From positions 77,489 through 141,488 of the forward strand of contig JAVCBU010000011.1 in assembly GCA_037917685.1 (NCBI GenBank): a DNA stretch of 64,000 nt. Reading direction: 5' to 3'. Made by a program: the position numbers and the translations under genes. Position 1 is the stretch's first letter, and every line of letters starts with the position of its first letter. Shown piece after piece: positions 25,061 through 52,564 of the stretch. The notes under the pieces were generated by a model. It was given only the letters and a program-made list of their open reading frames with translations, was not told the DNA's origin and did no database searches. The stretch is from Thermoproteota archaeon (GTDB lineage Archaea > Korarchaeota > Korarchaeia > Korarchaeales > JAOZGB01).

Positions 25061-25207
25061 ATGGGAGAGATATACGTAGATTCAGAGTTGTGGAAAGAAT
25101 ATAAGAAGATTGTAGAGGAACTTGGCCATAAACCTGAGAATCTCCTCCCCTTTGTCCTAGAAAAATACCTTAGACATCTGAGAAGGAAGGTTAGTATTGA
25201 TCATTAA
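25061..25207 (+). CDS. Small ribbon-helix-helix-like protein
   Basis: MGEIYVDSELWKEYKKIVEELGHKPENLLPFVLEKYL fits the strand-helix-G-helix pattern; AGGTTG upstream. Confidence 0.55.
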   Translation: MGEIYVDSELWKEYKKIVEELGHKPENLLPFVLEKYLRHLRRKVSIDH

Positions 25208-25254
25208 CTCCTTATAAGTTGCTACATCTTTAACTCCTTATAAGTTGCTACATC
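25204..25254 (+). repeat. Perfect 25-bp direct repeat, two copies, 26-bp period
   Basis: TTAACTCCTTATAAGTTGCTACATC at 25204-25228 and 25230-25254; contains the palindrome CTTATAAG. Confidence 0.95.
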
Positions 25255-25409
25255 AAGAATGGTTTAACATTCCCTTATCGTCGGGTAGGGTATAGGAAGG
25301 TTTGAATATTCGGTTTCAGCAGATCAAACATTTCTAGGAAGGGTAGATCTAAATTTCACACCTATGCTGATGAACCTATATTTTTAAGTGTTCTTATCCG
25401 ACGATTGCT

Positions 25410-31838: not shown

Positions 31839-32236
31839 TCGAAGCAGAGAGCTACCTCTGATATCTGTAGGGATCTCCCCGCCTTTATTGTGTAATTAGT
31901 AGACCCGCATGAGGGACAAGTAAATAATTGAAGTTGAAGTAGAAGATCTGGAAATAAGTGTGCAGAATTTAAATTGTTGCTTCTAGGCTTAGAGCTCCAC
32001 TCAAAGCTGCAGTCATTACATTTTAGTAGAGGATCCTCCCACTCTATCTTTACATCCATCCCCTCAGCCCTGGTACCTTTGGAGAAGACTTCTAACGCAA
32101 ACTTCAGAGAATCCTCATCTACCATCCTAAGTTTGCCTATCTTCAATTTTATCCATTTTATCCTAGCATTCGGCCTTCTAGACATCATCCCATTTAGGGA
32201 TCGAAGAATGGACAATGCTATACTGGACTCATGCAC
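31835..32236 (-). CDS. hypA: Hydrogenase nickel metallochaperone HypA
   Basis: N-terminal MHE; CNDC and CPSC zinc sites. Confidence 0.9.
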   Translation of the reverse strand: MHESSIALSILRSLNGMMSRRPNARIKWIKLKIGKLRMVDEDSLKFALEVFSKGTRAEGMDVKIEWEDPLLKCNDCSFEWSSKPRSNNLNSAHLFPDLLLQLQLFTCPSCGSTNYTIKAGRSLQISEVALCFD

Positions 32237-48153: not shown

Positions 48154-49569
48154 CTACGGCCTTTTAATCTTCCATATGGGCCCATCGGGGGTATCTTCTA
48201 TTATCACCCCTACCTCGGCGAGCCTGCTCCTGATCATGTCACTTGCCTCGTATTGTTTCATCTTTCTCAGCTCCTCTCTCACCTCAACTATGGCATCTAG
48301 CAGCTTCTCAACGAGCCCTCCACCATACTCCTCCCTACGCTGGAGTATTCCGAAGACCCAGCCCATTCTTCGAACGGTGTCGAGCACCTTTTCCTTAGCT
48401 TCCCCACTGATGCTTCTGCGGCTCGCCGCATACCTACCCATTTCCCTCAGCAGCATGTGAAGCTTTGAAAGCGCAAGTGGAGTGTTAAAGTCGTCATCCA
48501 TCGCCTCCTCAAACTCTGAAAGGAGTTTTTCAGCCTTCAATTCTAATTCCTCCCCTCCCTCCCCCTCCTCCAGCCTCCTGAACGAGTCTATCGTGTTGTA
48601 CATACCTTCAAGCGTATCCCTAGCCTTTGCAAGATCCTCCTCCCTATAGTGTATAGGCTTCCGGTAATGGGTCTGGACTACGTAGAGCCTTATGGCTTCA
48701 GCGCCGTACTTCGAGAGTGCCTCCCTAACGGTTATAAAGTTCTTTAGAGACTTGGACATCTTCTCACCACCTATCATTAGCACTCCCGAGTGCAGCCAGT
48801 ACTTGACGAATGGTTTTCTGCCCGTGTACGCCTCTGCCTGCGCGATTTCATTGGTATGATGCGGGAATATCAGCTCCGTAGCCCCGCCGTGAAGGTCGTA
48901 CTGGGGTCCGAAAATAGTGATGGTCATAGCTGTGTCTTCAATGTGCCAGCCGGGCCTGCCAGGCCCCCATGGACTATCCCAGTATGGCTCTCCCGGCTTG
49001 GCGGACTTCCAAAGGGCAAAGTCTAGGGGGCTCTTCTTCCTAGGGTCCGGCTCTATTCTATGCTTCTTCAGATCCTCAAGCCTCATCCCGGAAAGCCTAG
49101 TGTAGTCTGGAAACTTTGGCACGTGGTAGTAGACATCTCCATCAACCTGGTAGGCATACCCCTTCTCGATCAAGCCCTTAACCTGCTCTATCATCTCGGG
49201 GATGTAGTCCGACGACTTCGGGAAGAGGTTAACATTCTGTTTAACCCCTAGGGCCTCCATGTCCTCATAGAATCTCTCCAAGTACAGGCTTGAAAGCTCG
49301 TCCCAGCTCATTCCCCGCTCCCTAGCCCTCCTTATAATCTTGTCATCGATGTCCGTAACATTCTGAACATAGAACACCGAGTACCCTCGGTAGCGGAGCC
49401 ACCTAACAATCACGTCGAAGTTTATATAGGTCTTGGCATGGCCCAGGTGTGCATCATCATAAACAGTCTGGCCGCAGACGAACATGTTTACACGTCGTCC
49501 CCTGAGAGGGGTGAACTCCTCCTTACGCCTGGTAAGCGTATTATAAACCCGCAACACAATAGAAACCAC
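48154..49569 (-). CDS. cysS: Cysteinyl-tRNA synthetase
   Basis: CGQTVY, HLGH, DFALWK, GRPGWHIE, FPHH and KMSKS. Confidence 0.96.
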   Translation of the reverse strand: MVSIVLRVYNTLTRRKEEFTPLRGRRVNMFVCGQTVYDDAHLGHAKTYINFDVIVRWLRYRGYSVFYVQNVTDIDDKIIRRARERGMSWDELSSLYLERFYEDMEALGVKQNVNLFPKSSDYIPEMIEQVKGLIEKGYAYQVDGDVYYHVPKFPDYTRLSGMRLEDLKKHRIEPDPRKKSPLDFALWKSAKPGEPYWDSPWGPGRPGWHIEDTAMTITIFGPQYDLHGGATELIFPHHTNEIAQAEAYTGRKPFVKYWLHSGVLMIGGEKMSKSLKNFITVREALSKYGAEAIRLYVVQTHYRKPIHYREEDLAKARDTLEGMYNTIDSFRRLEEGEGGEELELKAEKLLSEFEEAMDDDFNTPLALSKLHMLLREMGRYAASRRSISGEAKEKVLDTVRRMGWVFGILQRREEYGGGLVEKLLDAIVEVREELRKMKQYEASDMIRSRLAEVGVIIEDTPDGPIWKIKRP

Positions 49570-49708
49570 CCTCCAGCCATAAAGTGCAGGGCTACTTATT
49601 AAACTTTACATAATTCCTAGCTAAGGGTGACATTTCAACATGCTATGCCAACATCTCACAGCCTGTGAAGAATGTTAGCTGTCCACCTCCACAACCTGGG
49701 TAGGCTTT

Positions 49709-51323
49709 CTAACAATCGTTTGTTCTGGGATTGTTAATCCCCACTTTCCATGCGAGGAGGAGTATGAGGATCAGACCCATAGCGGACATAGCTATAACGA
49801 CATCCCTAGCACTCCGCAACCTGCCTCCAGAGGCTTGGCTGGGCTGGGTTATGGTGGGAGTCCCAGCAACCTCCGAGCTAACTCCGTATATCGGCCTGCC
49901 ACCATACACATCTTCCAAGTACTTTACAAACACGTCGACATAGGAGATGTTTAGGAAGACAGCCTCCTCAACTTTAAGGATGAGTTTTAGACGGTAGAGT
50001 AGATAGTCACATGTTGCAACTTTAACAAAAAGCAACACTAAAACAGCAATAAAAACGTTTTAGACGGTAGAGTAGATAGTCACATGTTGCAACCATGTAG
50101 GATTTGCCGTCAATTATTAAGCTTCCGTTCGTAAGCATGCCACCCTTCACACCGGAGAAGCAGTATCGGGAAAGCAGTCTCTTAAGGGCCTCACCCCTCA
50201 GCTTAACTAGTACCACAGTGTTAGGGAAGGGGAAGACTCTGAGAACATCCTCCATGTCTATCTCCCCCTCGCCTATGGCTGCCCTTGTCCCCCCCATATT
50301 GTAGAACCCTAGGTCCGCACCCGTATACCATCTCATGGCGTCAGCCATTAGAAGGCAGAGGTCGTGCTTTCCCAGGGTTTTACCCGCATATCCGACTCGC
50401 CGTGAAAGGTAGCCTGACAGGTTCGCCTCGAACACTTCAATTATTCCCCTAATTCTCTCATCAGCCGCTATGGGAGGGCTTTCAGCTTCTAGGAGGCTGC
50501 TTTCATCCATGTCAACCTTCACCCCACGGCCCACGTATAGGACGAGCTTGCCGAGCTGCTTCCCATGCCCCCCGGTTTGGACGATAGCCGTCCCCCTGAT
50601 GAGAACTGGTTTCACGAGGGAAATCTCACTATGCCCTCCAACAATGACATCTATACCCCTTACACGGCTTGCAAGCTCCCTGTCAGCGTTCAGGCCAAGA
50701 TGAGATAGAACAACCAAAAGGTTGACTCTGCTCCTTAACAGGCATACATACCTTTCGACCTCGGTGAATGGATCTTTAAGCGTAAGTTCACCGGTAAGCG
50801 CTGGAAGCGTTATCGGGGCATCTGTCGTGACACCGATAACCCCAACCCTCAAGCTACCAACATTAATTATGGTGTAGGGCTCCACAATAAGGCTCATGTT
50901 GTCTGAGTAGTAGGCATTGCAACAGACAAACTTGAAATTGGAAATCCCTACAAGCCTAGACGTAACATTTAACCCCTTGTCAAACTCGTGGTTTCCAAGA
51001 GTGCACGCGTCGTACCCCACGAGGTTCATAGCCTCAACCATGGGAACACCGTCGTACAGGTCGCAAAGCGGCTCACCCATCGTAAAATCCCCAGCATCAA
51101 AAAGCAGCGTGTTATTCTCGGATGCTCTAATCTCAGAGACTAGACTTGAAAGCAGCATAAGCCCACCATACATGGACCCATCCCTATAGTAGGGCTTAAC
51201 CGCCCCGTGAAGGTCGTTTGTATATAGAATCACAATCCTAACCCCGCCACCCATACAGGGGGGTGGAGACGCACACCATAAGAATAGGACAACCACTAAG
51301 AGTCTAGTTCTAAATGTAGACAT
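49709..51323 (-). pseudogene. Secreted, membrane-anchored 5'-nucleotidase/metallophosphatase disrupted by a 73-bp insertion
   Basis: TNDLHG, DAGD, GNHEFD, LSHLG, GGHS, NMGGTR and FPFPN; removing one repeat plus the spacer (73 bp) joins the two ORFs in frame through to a C-terminal TM anchor. Confidence 0.88.
49984..50093. CRISPR. Single repeat-spacer-repeat unit (37/36/37 bp) inside a gene; candidate ectopic spacer integration
   Basis: GTTTTAGACGGTAGAGTAGATAGTCACATGTTGCAAC is exact at 49984-50020 and 50057-50093; the 36-bp insert has 9/36 G+C. The duplication is certain; the CRISPR origin is inferred. Confidence 0.55.
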
Positions 51324-51496
51324 CTCCCGAAGCCCAGATGAACATGGCCATCGAACACTTAAACAGTTTACCATTATCCCCTAAACACCGCGCACAGTAT
51401 GGTAGAGCACTGACTGCCACCCCATACCTCCCCCCACAAGGTGTAAAGCTATGGCAATTATAATTATTATCCGCAAATATGATTTAAGACTGGCAG

Positions 51497-52564
51497 ATGG
51501 AGAGGCTAGTTGTAAACCCGAATCCAACAGTCAGCCTACTATGCTATTCAGTCCTAAGAGTAGAGCCTTACACCTTCTGCAGCTACAGCTGCCCATACTG
51601 CTATAGGAATTGGGCGGCTGAGAAAAGGATGCCAAGGCTGAACATTAAAGACGTCACATCATTCAGGAGGCTAGCCGAGAAGCTTGAGAGAGAAGAGTAC
51701 AAGCTGCCAGTAAGGCTTTCAACCCTCTGCGAGCCCTTCCAGCCAGCCGAGGAAAGGTACAGGCTATCCTTGAGAGTGCTTAAATATGCTCTGCGCTACA
51801 GGATGCCGCTCATAGTATCAACAAAATCCACACTCCCAGCAAGGAAGCCCTGGATCCAGCTGATCTCAGAGCTAGCCTCCCAACAGCTCATAATAGTACA
51901 GTACACAGTTCTAACCCTAGGCCAGGAGTGGACCAGCCTAGAGCCCGGGGCTCCAAGCCCAATGGAGAGGATCAACACTGCAGGGAAGCTTGCGGACGCC
52001 GGGGTGCCCATAGTATTAAGGATACAGCCTGTAATCCCCGGCATAAACGACACCGCCGAAAAACTTGAAGAGCTGATGATAGAAGCCTCAAAGGTAGGAT
52101 TTAAACAGGCAATAATAGAGACAATAAGAACAACCCCGAACTCTGAGTACGCAATGAAATGGTACAGGCCATACCACAGCTCAAAACACCTGGTATCACC
52201 CCCAACATCGTACAAGTATAAGGTAACGGTTAGGGCATTTGAAGCTTCTAGGAAGGCAAACATGAAGCTTTCAGGCTGCAAGGAAGGCTTCCTAGACATG
52301 TACGATGCCGAAAACTGCTGTGGACTCGCCCACATCAAGCAGCACAGCCTAAGAATAACAATAAGAGATATCTACAGGAGGACATCCAAGGGAGAAACCA
52401 TAGAAGAAGCAATAAACAACCTGCTGGAAAACCCGAGATACGTAGAGTCAAATCTAAAAGCCTACCCAAAACCAGTAAGGAAGAAACTGAGGAAACACCA
52501 CAGCATGCTTATAAAATACATACAGACAGGCCTAGCAGCCAAGATAGTCCCAGCACTACAATAA
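51497..52564 (+). CDS. Radical SAM protein (SPL-like family)
   Basis: CSYSCPYC, EPFQPAE, STKS, LEPGAPSP and RIQPVIPG. Confidence 0.88.
   Translation: MERLVVNPNPTVSLLCYSVLRVEPYTFCSYSCPYCYRNWAAEKRMPRLNIKDVTSFRRLAEKLEREEYKLPVRLSTLCEPFQPAEERYRLSLRVLKYALRYRMPLIVSTKSTLPARKPWIQLISELASQQLIIVQYTVLTLGQEWTSLEPGAPSPMERINTAGKLADAGVPIVLRIQPVIPGINDTAEKLEELMIEASKVGFKQAIIETIRTTPNSEYAMKWYRPYHSSKHLVSPPTSYKYKVTVRAFEASRKANMKLSGCKEGFLDMYDAENCCGLAHIKQHSLRITIRDIYRRTSKGETIEEAINNLLENPRYVESNLKAYPKPVRKKLRKHHSMLIKYIQTGLAAKIVPALQ

Follow-up and report, generated by a model that had tools for sequence, protein, structure and literature searches.

A 5'-nucleotidase gene divided by a duplicated repeat

The stretch of DNA analysed here, referred to as the window, comprises 64,000 nucleotides of the genome of an uncultured sediment archaeon. 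On its minus strand, a gene of the metallophosphatase/5'-nucleotidase family is divided by a repeat-insert-repeat structure at positions 49984-50093. Two exact copies of a 37-nt direct repeat (GTTTTAGACGG...GTTGCAAC), located at 49984-50020 and 50057-50093 with their starts 73 nt apart, enclose a 36-nt insert (50021-50056) that is unrelated to the repeat and has a G+C content of 25%. Because the bases adjoining the two copies differ on both sides, the duplication measures exactly 37 nt. The repeat has no other place in the 1.81-Mb genome, and the insert is present once.

The upstream part of the gene persists as a truncated open reading frame (ORF) of 450 amino acids (50022..51374, minus strand), composed of 439 native residues and an aberrant tail of 11. 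It encodes a hydrophobic N-terminal segment followed by a Metallophos domain (PF00149, 31 bits; cut-off 21.5) and a 5_nucleotid_C domain (PF02872, 67.9 bits; cut-off 23.6). Its native sequence terminates in ...SYMVATCDYLLYRLK, after which 11 out-of-frame residues lead to a TAA stop. In the direction of the gene, the first copy of the repeat (50057..50093, minus strand) is in frame with this upstream part and encodes ...VATCDYLLYRLK. The insert, which is of spacer length and assigned to neither strand, then supplies the 11 aberrant codons and the stop. The second copy (49984..50020, minus strand) lies in the frame of the stranded 3' remainder, an ORF of 109 amino acids (49709..50038, minus strand) whose frame is offset by +1 from that of the upstream part. 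This remainder starts again with ...VATCDYLLYRLK and comprises what is left of the C-terminal region, together with a linker and a C-terminal anchor, which is hydrophobic, with a Kyte-Doolittle maximum of 2.34 at residues 79-97 of the ORF.

Comparison with homologues identifies the divided state as derived. Among 8,000 candidates scored, 1,913 were homologous to the interrupted gene at E values up to 0.001. The closest of them, P0002, is an intact protein of 516 amino acids that holds the motif encoded by the repeat a single time and whose sequence then runs on, colinear with the downstream ORF. The truncated ORF is 75% identical to P0002 over residues 14-439, the 3' remainder aligns to its residues 417-508 (E 1e-21), and both copies of the repeat align to its residues 417-429. 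With its single motif, P0002 would represent, at the protein level, the ancestral empty state of the site. When 73 nt are deleted in silico, a single frame of 530 amino acids results, which aligns to P0002 residues 1-516. Among 40 relatives, a search for an orthologue of the nucleotidase returned none, apart from one weak match with stops (E 9.2e-4), and among the loci around CysRS on genome contigs, identity never exceeded 64%.

A sequence-only reading of the window had described an exact 37-bp repeat around an unrelated 36-bp insert, and had held that deletion of 73 bp restores one ORF with its membrane anchor; both statements are borne out, the former at exactly the positions given above. 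It had also linked a VATxDYL motif in the repeat to 5'-nucleotidase C-domains. In P0002, the sole comparison, the corresponding place reads VATCNYLLYRVR; the Pfam 5_nucleotid_C match stops at residue 403, before the motif.

The +1 frameshift and the stop, which follows 11 codons of the insert, deprive the enzyme of its final 91 residues and with them of the C-terminal membrane anchor. Thermoproteota are known to splice bulge-helix-bulge introns from protein-coding genes, for instance from cbf5, and the allele would not be null if the tRNA-splicing endonuclease removed 73 nt from the mRNA. A quasi-palindrome present in both copies (GUUG-CAA-CAUG-UGAC) could pair as a helix, a 3-nt bulge, a 4-bp helix, a second 3-nt bulge and a helix, placing the cuts 73 nt apart. 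A brute-force scan indeed revealed a single register in which 4/4/4 pairs combine with two 3-nt bulges at a spacing of 73, and excision anywhere in the repeat register would restore the frame. However, the motif alone has a folding energy of +2.1 kcal/mol, and the best fold that contains it reaches -21.7 kcal/mol against a minimum free energy of -30.5 kcal/mol, so that it is disfavoured by about 9 kcal/mol. Pair probabilities in the central helix amount to 0.7-0.8%, and half of the eight outer pairs are of the G-U type. Moreover, 5.7% of random genomic 37-mers yield such a motif when duplicated, and the locus was found in none of the three RNA runs listed. In view of the unfavourable energy and of this chance rate, we judge splicing of this kind very unlikely.

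Public contigs bear on whether the arrangement exists in real molecules. A 96-nt contig spans the insert and extends 30 nt into the repeat at either end, thus covering both insert junctions, at a depth of 279 in run X1 and 191 in run X2. Flank depths are 217-388, and a contig made up of the repeat only reaches 600 and 426, about twice the depth. The contigs were built with k=31, which is shorter than the repeat, and the order of the pieces, like any empty allele, is beyond their reach; since the repeat is unique coding sequence of the gene, the insert must nevertheless lie between two repeat copies. Repeat depth minus twice the insert depth equals 42 and 43, with ratios to the flanks that are inconsistent between the runs, as read from k=31 contigs shorter than the repeat. 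Runs X1 and X2, possibly from the source sample, could be a single data set deposited under two entries, and they do not count as independent support for this reason. In run X3 nothing of the locus was covered. The repeat-insert-repeat unit dominates the contigs of the population.

An assembly or binning artefact, in which repeat, insert and repeat would be contiguous in no real molecule, could be suspected in a draft of 22 contigs with 95% completeness and 3.2% contamination, for which read-level data consist of k=31 contigs only, possibly from the source sample. Yet an insert-spanning contig close to flank depth and a repeat of about twice that depth argue against it, as does the occurrence of a second event, described below, inside a contig of 429 kb. 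We consider an artefact extremely unlikely.

The resident CRISPR-Cas system

Contig C9 of the same genome encodes Cas1, Cas2, Cas4, Csa1 (type I-A model) and Cas3' as open frames, which lie between CRISPR arrays and adjoin a type III effector module. The single Cas1 matches its Pfam and TIGR00287 models with E values of 2.8e-82 and 3.4e-83, respectively; this protein and the one Cas2 exceed curated cut-offs, and internal stops are absent. The genuine CRISPR repeat is 37 nt long, with the ends GTTTCAA...TTGAAAG. The four complete spacers measure 36, 37, 37 and 37 nt, and another, cut by the contig end, at least 36 nt; the G+C content of the real spacers is 53-59%. At both the nucleotidase site and the second site described below, the duplication thus equals the length of the genuine repeat, and the 36-nt insert of the former has the length of a spacer.

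The spacer nearest to the leader (C9:32063-32099) is identical to contig C8 over 37 of 37 positions, which we count as recent activity of the CRISPR system and in favour of the preferred reading given below. Contig C8 has an atypical composition and hardly any recognisable genes: all nine of its ORFs lack a PHROG match, one Pfam match (Rce1-like) was obtained, and no relative was found among viral contigs. Three links, and no other, connect contig C9 to the genome: it was binned with it, the tetranucleotide correlation is 0.886, and contig C14 carries a 20-nt half-repeat; a MAFFT alignment of the flank of this half-repeat with the C9 leaders was poor, with three shared 10-11-mers recognised by eye only. 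The real repeat was found neither in 40 relatives, with up to 3 mismatches allowed, nor elsewhere in exact scans of genome contigs and metagenome contigs, and the distribution of spacer lengths could therefore not be widened beyond the genome's own arrays. At the Rfam gathering threshold, no CRISPR family was detected in C9:1-16100.

The nucleotidase target resembles the genuine repeat at its borders. In one orientation, each of its 7-nt ends shares 5 of 7 positions with the real repeat, a level of both-ends likeness that occurs at 1,219 of 1,812,454 genomic sites (6.7e-4); in the opposite orientation, one end reaches 6 of 7. Over the entire length, 16 of 37 positions are identical on the plus strand and 13 of 37 on the minus strand. 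The ectopic unit is like the C9 arrays in its 37-nt repeat, its period (73-74 in the arrays) and its similar 7-nt termini, and unlike them in its low repeat identity (16/37), in having one spacer only and no conserved leader, and in its position within a gene on another contig, far from the cas genes. As regards function as an array, repeats recognised by the resident Cas6 and effector have the conserved 3' handle ATTGAAAG, which is absent from the ectopic repeat; the latter ends in GTTGCAAC on the plus strand and in TCTAAAAC on the minus strand. Inspection of the flanks by eye showed nothing leader-like, and no Rfam match was obtained in 49000-51500 at E up to 1.

A second scar and the origin of the inserts

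All exact direct repeats of the genome with a spacing of up to 250 nt were collected, giving 79 pairs. A period of 72-74 is found at four kinds of locus: the true CRISPR arrays, the nucleotidase site, a site on contig C6, and a 30-nt pair at C9:953 inside the CRISPR locus. Given this distribution, the structure in the nucleotidase gene is not a product of chance. The C6 site (C6:167536-167644) is a second, independent scar of the same geometry, in which an exact 37-nt duplication surrounds an unrelated insert of 35 nt, 1 nt below the shortest of the four real spacers measured; it sits within the 429-kb contig mentioned above. In G001, a genome of the same genus, the corresponding sequence contains a single copy (36/37 identical) and lacks the insert, with one T different at the right boundary, and thus shows the site empty at the DNA level. 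The C6 target resembles the real repeat at one end only (5/7), and as likeness at one end occurs at 5.9% of all sites, it is not significant here. At the Rfam gathering threshold, one tRNA was detected in the C6 stretch.

Two older scars are perhaps present at C14:274413 and C9:879-1064. The C14 candidate has no match in G001, a genome that is about 66% complete. The triple repeat at C9:879-1064 was considered as a neo-array, but its copies differ from one another mostly within their final 8 nt, a poor fit to a simple 37-nt duplication.

Several collections were searched for the source of the inserts. In the genome itself, nothing else lies within 9 substitutions of the nucleotidase insert, whose best exact match is 14 nt long, and neither insert has a source there by searches that included blastn-short. 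Exact scans of viral contigs returned no source for either insert, and an exact scan of metagenome contigs no match for the nucleotidase insert. BLAST of the latter against phages and plasmids gave chance-level matches only (best E 0.4 and 0.03). Its likeness to the CRISPR leaders equals that of shuffled sequences (score 14, shuffled mean 14.0). The absence of a self match is what suggests a foreign origin for this insert.

A direct duplication flanking an insert is also the layout of a transposition product, and the unit could in principle be a very small MITE-like mobile element with an unusually long target-site duplication. Against this, each insert is single-copy and devoid of a terminal inverted repeat (3 of 12 terminal positions match in each), and the similarity of one insert to the other does not exceed that of shuffled sequences (score 6, shuffled mean 6.1). 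We know of no element that combines a 37-bp duplication with a 36-bp body, and find a mobile element scarcely credible.

Duplications with filler DNA exist in principle, and might arise independently of CRISPR by slippage with template switching or by end joining of a staggered break that captures a stray fragment. No protospacer links the insert to CRISPR adaptation, and its G+C content of 25% is unlike that of real spacers; both points are compatible with filler DNA, and the lack of a source together with the contrast between 25% and 53-59% G+C counts against spacer acquisition. Filler DNA, however, does not predict a duplication of exactly one repeat length around an insert of spacer length, nor a recurrence of the geometry within a single genome (37/36 and 37/35), nor a target with both ends repeat-like, as at 6.7e-4 of sites. 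Template switching in particular would call for a genomic donor, which the searches described above did not reveal. Filler DNA has a slim chance of being the correct explanation.

The reading that we prefer, with a probability of roughly 0.85, is natural off-target ('ectopic') full-site integration of a spacer by the genome's own Cas1-Cas2. A complex carrying a 36-nt prespacer would have attacked the 5'-nucleotidase gene on both strands, at points separated by 37 bp, the distance that it measures on the real 37-bp repeat, at a stretch with repeat-like ends, and gap filling would then have duplicated the 37 bp on either side of the new 'spacer'. Catalysis at this sequence by the Cas1-Cas2 of contig C9 is inferred from the scar. 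The identity of the two copies, and the otherwise intact state of both gene halves, mark the event as recent. Natural ectopic spacer acquisition had been proposed in the sequence-only reading and is supported by the present analysis, in which all of its proposed tests that could be run gave favourable results: contigs cover both junctions at depths of 191-279, the intact homologue has one copy of the motif, cas1 and cas2 are present as open frames, repeat and spacer lengths (37 and 36-37 nt) agree with the duplication and the insert, a second event of the same geometry exists, and the insert has neither the terminal inverted repeats nor the further genomic copies of an IS or MITE.

A more far-reaching proposition would be that off-target integration is frequent enough in this lineage to act as a natural mutagen, of which the two clean scars, and perhaps the two older candidates on C14 and C9, would be the visible traces, that the resulting units are raw material of new arrays, at least one of them transcribed and spacer-accepting, and that the nucleotidase knock-out has risen to a majority of the population because the loss is advantageous. 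We regard it as unlikely.

Significance and comparison with known systems

One wild genome thus contains two scars whose duplications agree exactly with the ruler length of the resident system; the first has a DNA-level empty site in the same genus, and the other inactivates a gene. These scars provide a concrete basis in nature for self-mutagenesis as a fitness cost of CRISPR adaptation, and make two natural off-target sequences available for defining the recognition rules of a type I-A-like integrase. They also suggest a signature for genome-wide searches, namely a repeat-length duplication around a spacer-length insert. A full-text search of the literature returned no account of a gene inactivated in nature by a stray spacer; it covered a limited collection of main texts without supplements, whose lists of natural sites could bear on novelty.

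In transposon and casposon target-site duplication, a staggered attack on two strands is followed by gap repair that duplicates the target. The unit described here is unlike these elements in that its 36-nt insert has neither terminal inverted repeats nor coding capacity, and in that the duplication is longer than the insert.

Off-target integration by Cas1-Cas2 has been demonstrated with overexpressed or purified proteins. In Escherichia coli, off-target integration by the type I-E system is reported to yield 'neo-CRISPR' loci (Nivala, Shipman & Church 2018, Nat Microbiol 3:310); for two other species, the evidence of that study is termed only 'circumstantial' in a citing preprint. As described in citing papers, the E. 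coli loci share with the nucleotidase site a spacer-sized insert, a repeat-length duplication of a repeat-like non-CRISPR sequence, and a minimal repeat-spacer-repeat structure. Whereas they arose under overexpression of Cas1-Cas2, the present case is natural and archaeal, involves a Cas1/Cas2/Cas4/Csa1 module with a 37-bp ruler, and interrupts a protein-coding gene. The two other species are reportedly Yersinia pestis and Sulfolobus islandicus.

In vitro, Cas1-Cas2 of Pyrococcus furiosus was found to integrate at repeat-like non-CRISPR sites of plasmids, one repeat length apart (Grainy et al. 2019, PMC6698737). Paired attacks on opposite strands at a distance of one repeat length, and targets with scattered repeat bases, mainly at the borders, are common to both cases. 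The P. furiosus proteins prefer G or C at the borders; here, a 5' G is present on both strands of the nucleotidase target and on one strand of the C6 target. The spacing of 30 bp, the plasmids and the purified proteins of that system contrast with the 37 bp, the chromosomal location and the inference from a scar in the present one. The process itself is known from the laboratory, and the divided nucleotidase gene is best read as a natural case of this known kind of event.

A nucleotidase gene interrupted by a duplication and an insert

Two identical 37-nt copies of one sequence (GTTTTAGACGG...GTTGCAAC), at 49984-50020 and 50057-50093, enclose an unrelated, A+T-rich insert of 36 nt (50021-50056); the coordinates and the identity of the copies agree with the sequence-only reading. 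The bases bordering the copies differ on either side, which fixes the length of the duplication at exactly 37 nt and that of the insert at exactly 36 nt. The window corresponds to C7:77489-141488 of a draft genome (1.81 Mb, 22 contigs); across all of its contigs, the repeat occurs at just these two sites and the insert once. Elsewhere in the window, a tandem repeat of period 26 lies at 25200-25255 (2.2 copies, 93% matches).

The structure sits within a gene on the minus strand. An ORF of 450 aa (50022..51374, minus strand) with Metallophos and 5_nucleotid_C domains ends in ...SYMVATCDYLLYRLK, encoded by the copy that is read first, followed by 11 aberrant residues from the insert and a TAA codon. 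A second minus-strand ORF of 109 aa (49709..50038) contains VATCDYLLYRLK again, encoded by the other copy, and a strongly hydrophobic C-terminal segment (Kyte-Doolittle maximum 2.34, residues 79-97). In a homologue search (1,913 proteins at E ≤0.001 among 8,000 candidates scored), the best non-self match and closest homologue was P0002, an intact protein of 516 aa. It is 75% identical to the 450-aa ORF across residues 14-439, carries the motif once (RVATCNYLLYRVR, residues 417-429) and, past the motif, is colinear with the 109-aa ORF (E 1e-21) through to a C-terminal anchor of its own. Deletion of 73 nt in silico yields a single 530-aa frame that is 67.6% identical to P0002 1-516, bearing out the proposal that one anchored ORF is thereby restored. 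The single motif of P0002 and this restored frame show that duplication plus insert is the derived state of the gene. As had also been proposed, the product loses its anchor, along with the rest of its last 91 residues. Identical copies and otherwise intact halves indicate a recent insertion. A search of 40 relatives found no orthologue of the gene; the host is an uncultured archaeon whose CysRS shares at most 64% identity with any named MAG, the closest matches being labelled Thermoproteota, Bathyarchaeia or Aenigmatarchaeota.

The consequence for the gene, rather than the origin of the structure, would differ if the 73 nt were removed from the mRNA by bulge-helix-bulge splicing, which would restore the message. 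On the minus strand, each copy starts with a 15-nt quasi-palindrome (GUUGCAACAUGUGAC; 50079-50093 and 50006-50020) that can pair with its twin, and the duplicated GUUG-CAA-CAUG-UGAC can formally self-pair as a bulge-helix-bulge with cuts 73 nt apart. However, this fold is ~9 kcal/mol worse than the MFE, its central helix has a probability below 1%, and duplicating genomic 37-mers would by chance create the motif in 5.7% of cases, so that splicing is very improbable. A search of public runs returned no RNA runs holding the stretch.

Two public sediment-metagenome runs contain 0.95 and 0.94 of the words sampled from the stretch; possibly they come from the source sample, and they may be a single data set that was deposited under two entries. 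A 96-nt contig assembled at k=31 (49991-50086) comprises the entire insert together with 30 nt of the repeat copy at either end, at depths of 279 and 191 compared with 331/388 and 217-284/270 in the flanks; a 37-nt repeat-only contig has depths of 600 and 426, values too noisy for allele-fraction arithmetic. Both junctions are therefore real, and an assembly artefact, which these spanning contigs contradict, is barely credible. As the 37-nt repeat exceeds k=31, the contigs do not separate filled from empty alleles. At 50095, C replaces A in about half of the contig depth, so the runs contain two or more haplotypes; read on the gene strand, the variant turns the Met immediately preceding the motif into Arg, the residue of P0002 at that position. 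Public contigs break off at 50103 and 49727 in CTGTCTCTTATACACATCT or its complement, which we take to be library adapter; these ends are technical in origin and belong to the runs rather than to the genome.

The resident CRISPR-Cas system

The cas1, cas2 and arrays that the sequence-only reading invoked are found on contig C9 (32 kb) of the same genome. Of its three arrays, at C9:20-129, 1164-1348 and 32026-32136, the two outer ones are truncated by the contig ends; a lone repeat lies at C9:4606. The repeat is 37 nt long (GTTTCAAAAGCAAAACCGGCTTAAACGGGATTGAAAG); the four complete spacers measure 36, 37, 37 and 37 nt, and one more, clipped at a contig end, at least 36 nt. This repeat was not found in 40 relatives, nor by exact scans of two public collections, so the sample of spacer lengths stays at four. 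Between the arrays are genes for Cas3', Cas2, Csa1 (type I-A model, E 2.5e-54), Cas1 (E 3.4e-83) and Cas4, together with a type III effector module comprising Cas10, Csx10 and Csx7-like RAMPs; every one of these genes is an open frame. The tetranucleotide correlation of C9 with the large contigs (0.886) is like that of other contigs its size. Contig C14 (289 kb) carries one half of the repeat as an exact 20-nt match (C14:273363-273382). A+T-rich sequence follows this half-repeat, which is probably left over from a former array; its flank aligned poorly to the C9 leaders in MAFFT, and the three 10-11-mers that they share were noticed only by eye.

The leader-proximal spacer of the 3' array (C9:32063-32099) is identical to C8:6257-6293 (37/37; 5' flank ...GCCTCA). 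Contig C8 (9.3 kb) is atypical in composition (tetranucleotide r 0.33), and its ORFs of at least 100 aa lie mainly on one strand. Nine of its ORFs gave one Pfam match and no PHROG match, and one ORF queried in viral contigs had no relative there; C8 probably represents a virus or plasmid that was binned together with this genome. The spacer match and these features suggest that the adaptation module has recently been active against a co-occurring mobile element. Contigs C5 and C8, with tetranucleotide correlations to the large contigs of 0.48 and 0.33 and a G+C of 0.52 against ~0.45 elsewhere, may be foreign to this organism.

In the nucleotidase gene, the duplication has the length of the CRISPR repeat, and the length of the insert is within the range of the spacers; its G+C is 25%, against 53-59% in the spacers of C9. 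In plus orientation both 7-nt ends of the target match the CRISPR repeat at 5/7 positions, and in minus orientation one end matches at 6/7 (GTTGCAA vs GTTTCAA); overall, 16/37 positions are identical. Only 1,219 of 1,812,454 genomic sites match at 5/7 or better at both ends in one orientation, and 3.2% of sites attain 16/37, but these statistics were picked after the data had been seen and the likeness of the target therefore counts as supporting evidence only.

A second scar and other repeat pairs

The whole genome was scanned for exact direct repeats spaced ≤250 nt apart (79 pairs) and, allowing mismatches, at offsets of 45-130 (23 rows). Exact pairs with a period of 72-74 were confined to the true arrays, the nucleotidase site, a 30-nt pair within the CRISPR locus (C9:953) and one pair on contig C6. 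In the latter, exact 37-nt copies (GGAGGGGGTGAC...TTTGAATT; C6:167536-167572 and 167608-167644) flank an insert of 35 nt of unrelated sequence; the neighbouring genes are TFIIB-like on one side and LSm on the other. In G001, a genome of the same genus, the two flanks of this scar can each be aligned as far as the outer edge of a copy, with an overlap of exactly 37 nt; pairwise alignment finds one copy (36/37 identical) and no insert, the T-run at the right border being one T shorter. G001 holds a DNA-level empty site.

A tiny mobile element, as the origin of the nucleotidase scar, is scarcely conceivable: both inserts are single-copy and lack terminal inverted repeats, and their mutual likeness does not exceed that of shuffled controls. 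Somewhat less remote, though still improbable, is a CRISPR-independent duplication with filler DNA; such a process would not match the repeat and spacer lengths twice, and the genome holds no template donor. Sources of the two inserts were found neither in the genome itself nor in viral contigs; that of the nucleotidase insert was likewise absent from metagenome contigs and from phage and plasmid records, and CRISPR leaders were not found to be a source. The C6 target resembles the CRISPR repeat (5/7) at one end only, a likeness equalled by 5.9% of sites and not significant alone. Such a target does fit a mechanism that recognises one border and measures out the position of the other.

An imperfect direct repeat of period 74 at C14:274413-274524 (33-nt core at 94% identity, 34/38 when extended), ~1 kb from the CRISPR half-repeat, may mark an earlier event of this type; a search for its empty site gave none, G001 having no match. 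Between two canonical arrays, C9:879-1064 holds three copies of a ~38-nt unit (GTGCTTGTGTGTTTCC...) with period 74 and intervening stretches of 36 nt. Copies two and three agree over 30 nt and differ in their last 8 nt, a poor fit to a simple 37-nt duplication.

Probable off-target integration and known events

The feature in the nucleotidase gene is real, and off-target full-site integration by the resident Cas1-Cas2 best explains it (probability about 0.85). This interpretation, already put forward from the sequence alone, is supported by the matching repeat and spacer lengths and reinforced by the C6 scar with its verified empty site.

One study describes how P. furiosus Cas1-Cas2, in vitro, integrate outside CRISPR at sites separated by one repeat length (30 bp), with G or C favoured at the borders and bases in common with the repeat (PMC6698737). 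As reported in papers that cite it, off-target integration into the genome of E. coli overproducing Cas1-Cas2 generated new repeat-spacer units (Nivala et al., 2018), and a citing preprint credits that work with 'circumstantial evidence' for two other species. Within a limited collection of full texts, we found no report of a natural gene inactivated by such integration. The repeat of the structure differs from the resident one, so the structure does not qualify as a functional CRISPR array; as the sequence-only reading proposed, it might seed a new one. It does show the testable features of a Cas1-Cas2 integration product, and it works like the P. furiosus in vitro and E. coli off-target events; the scar is a natural instance of an already known type of event.
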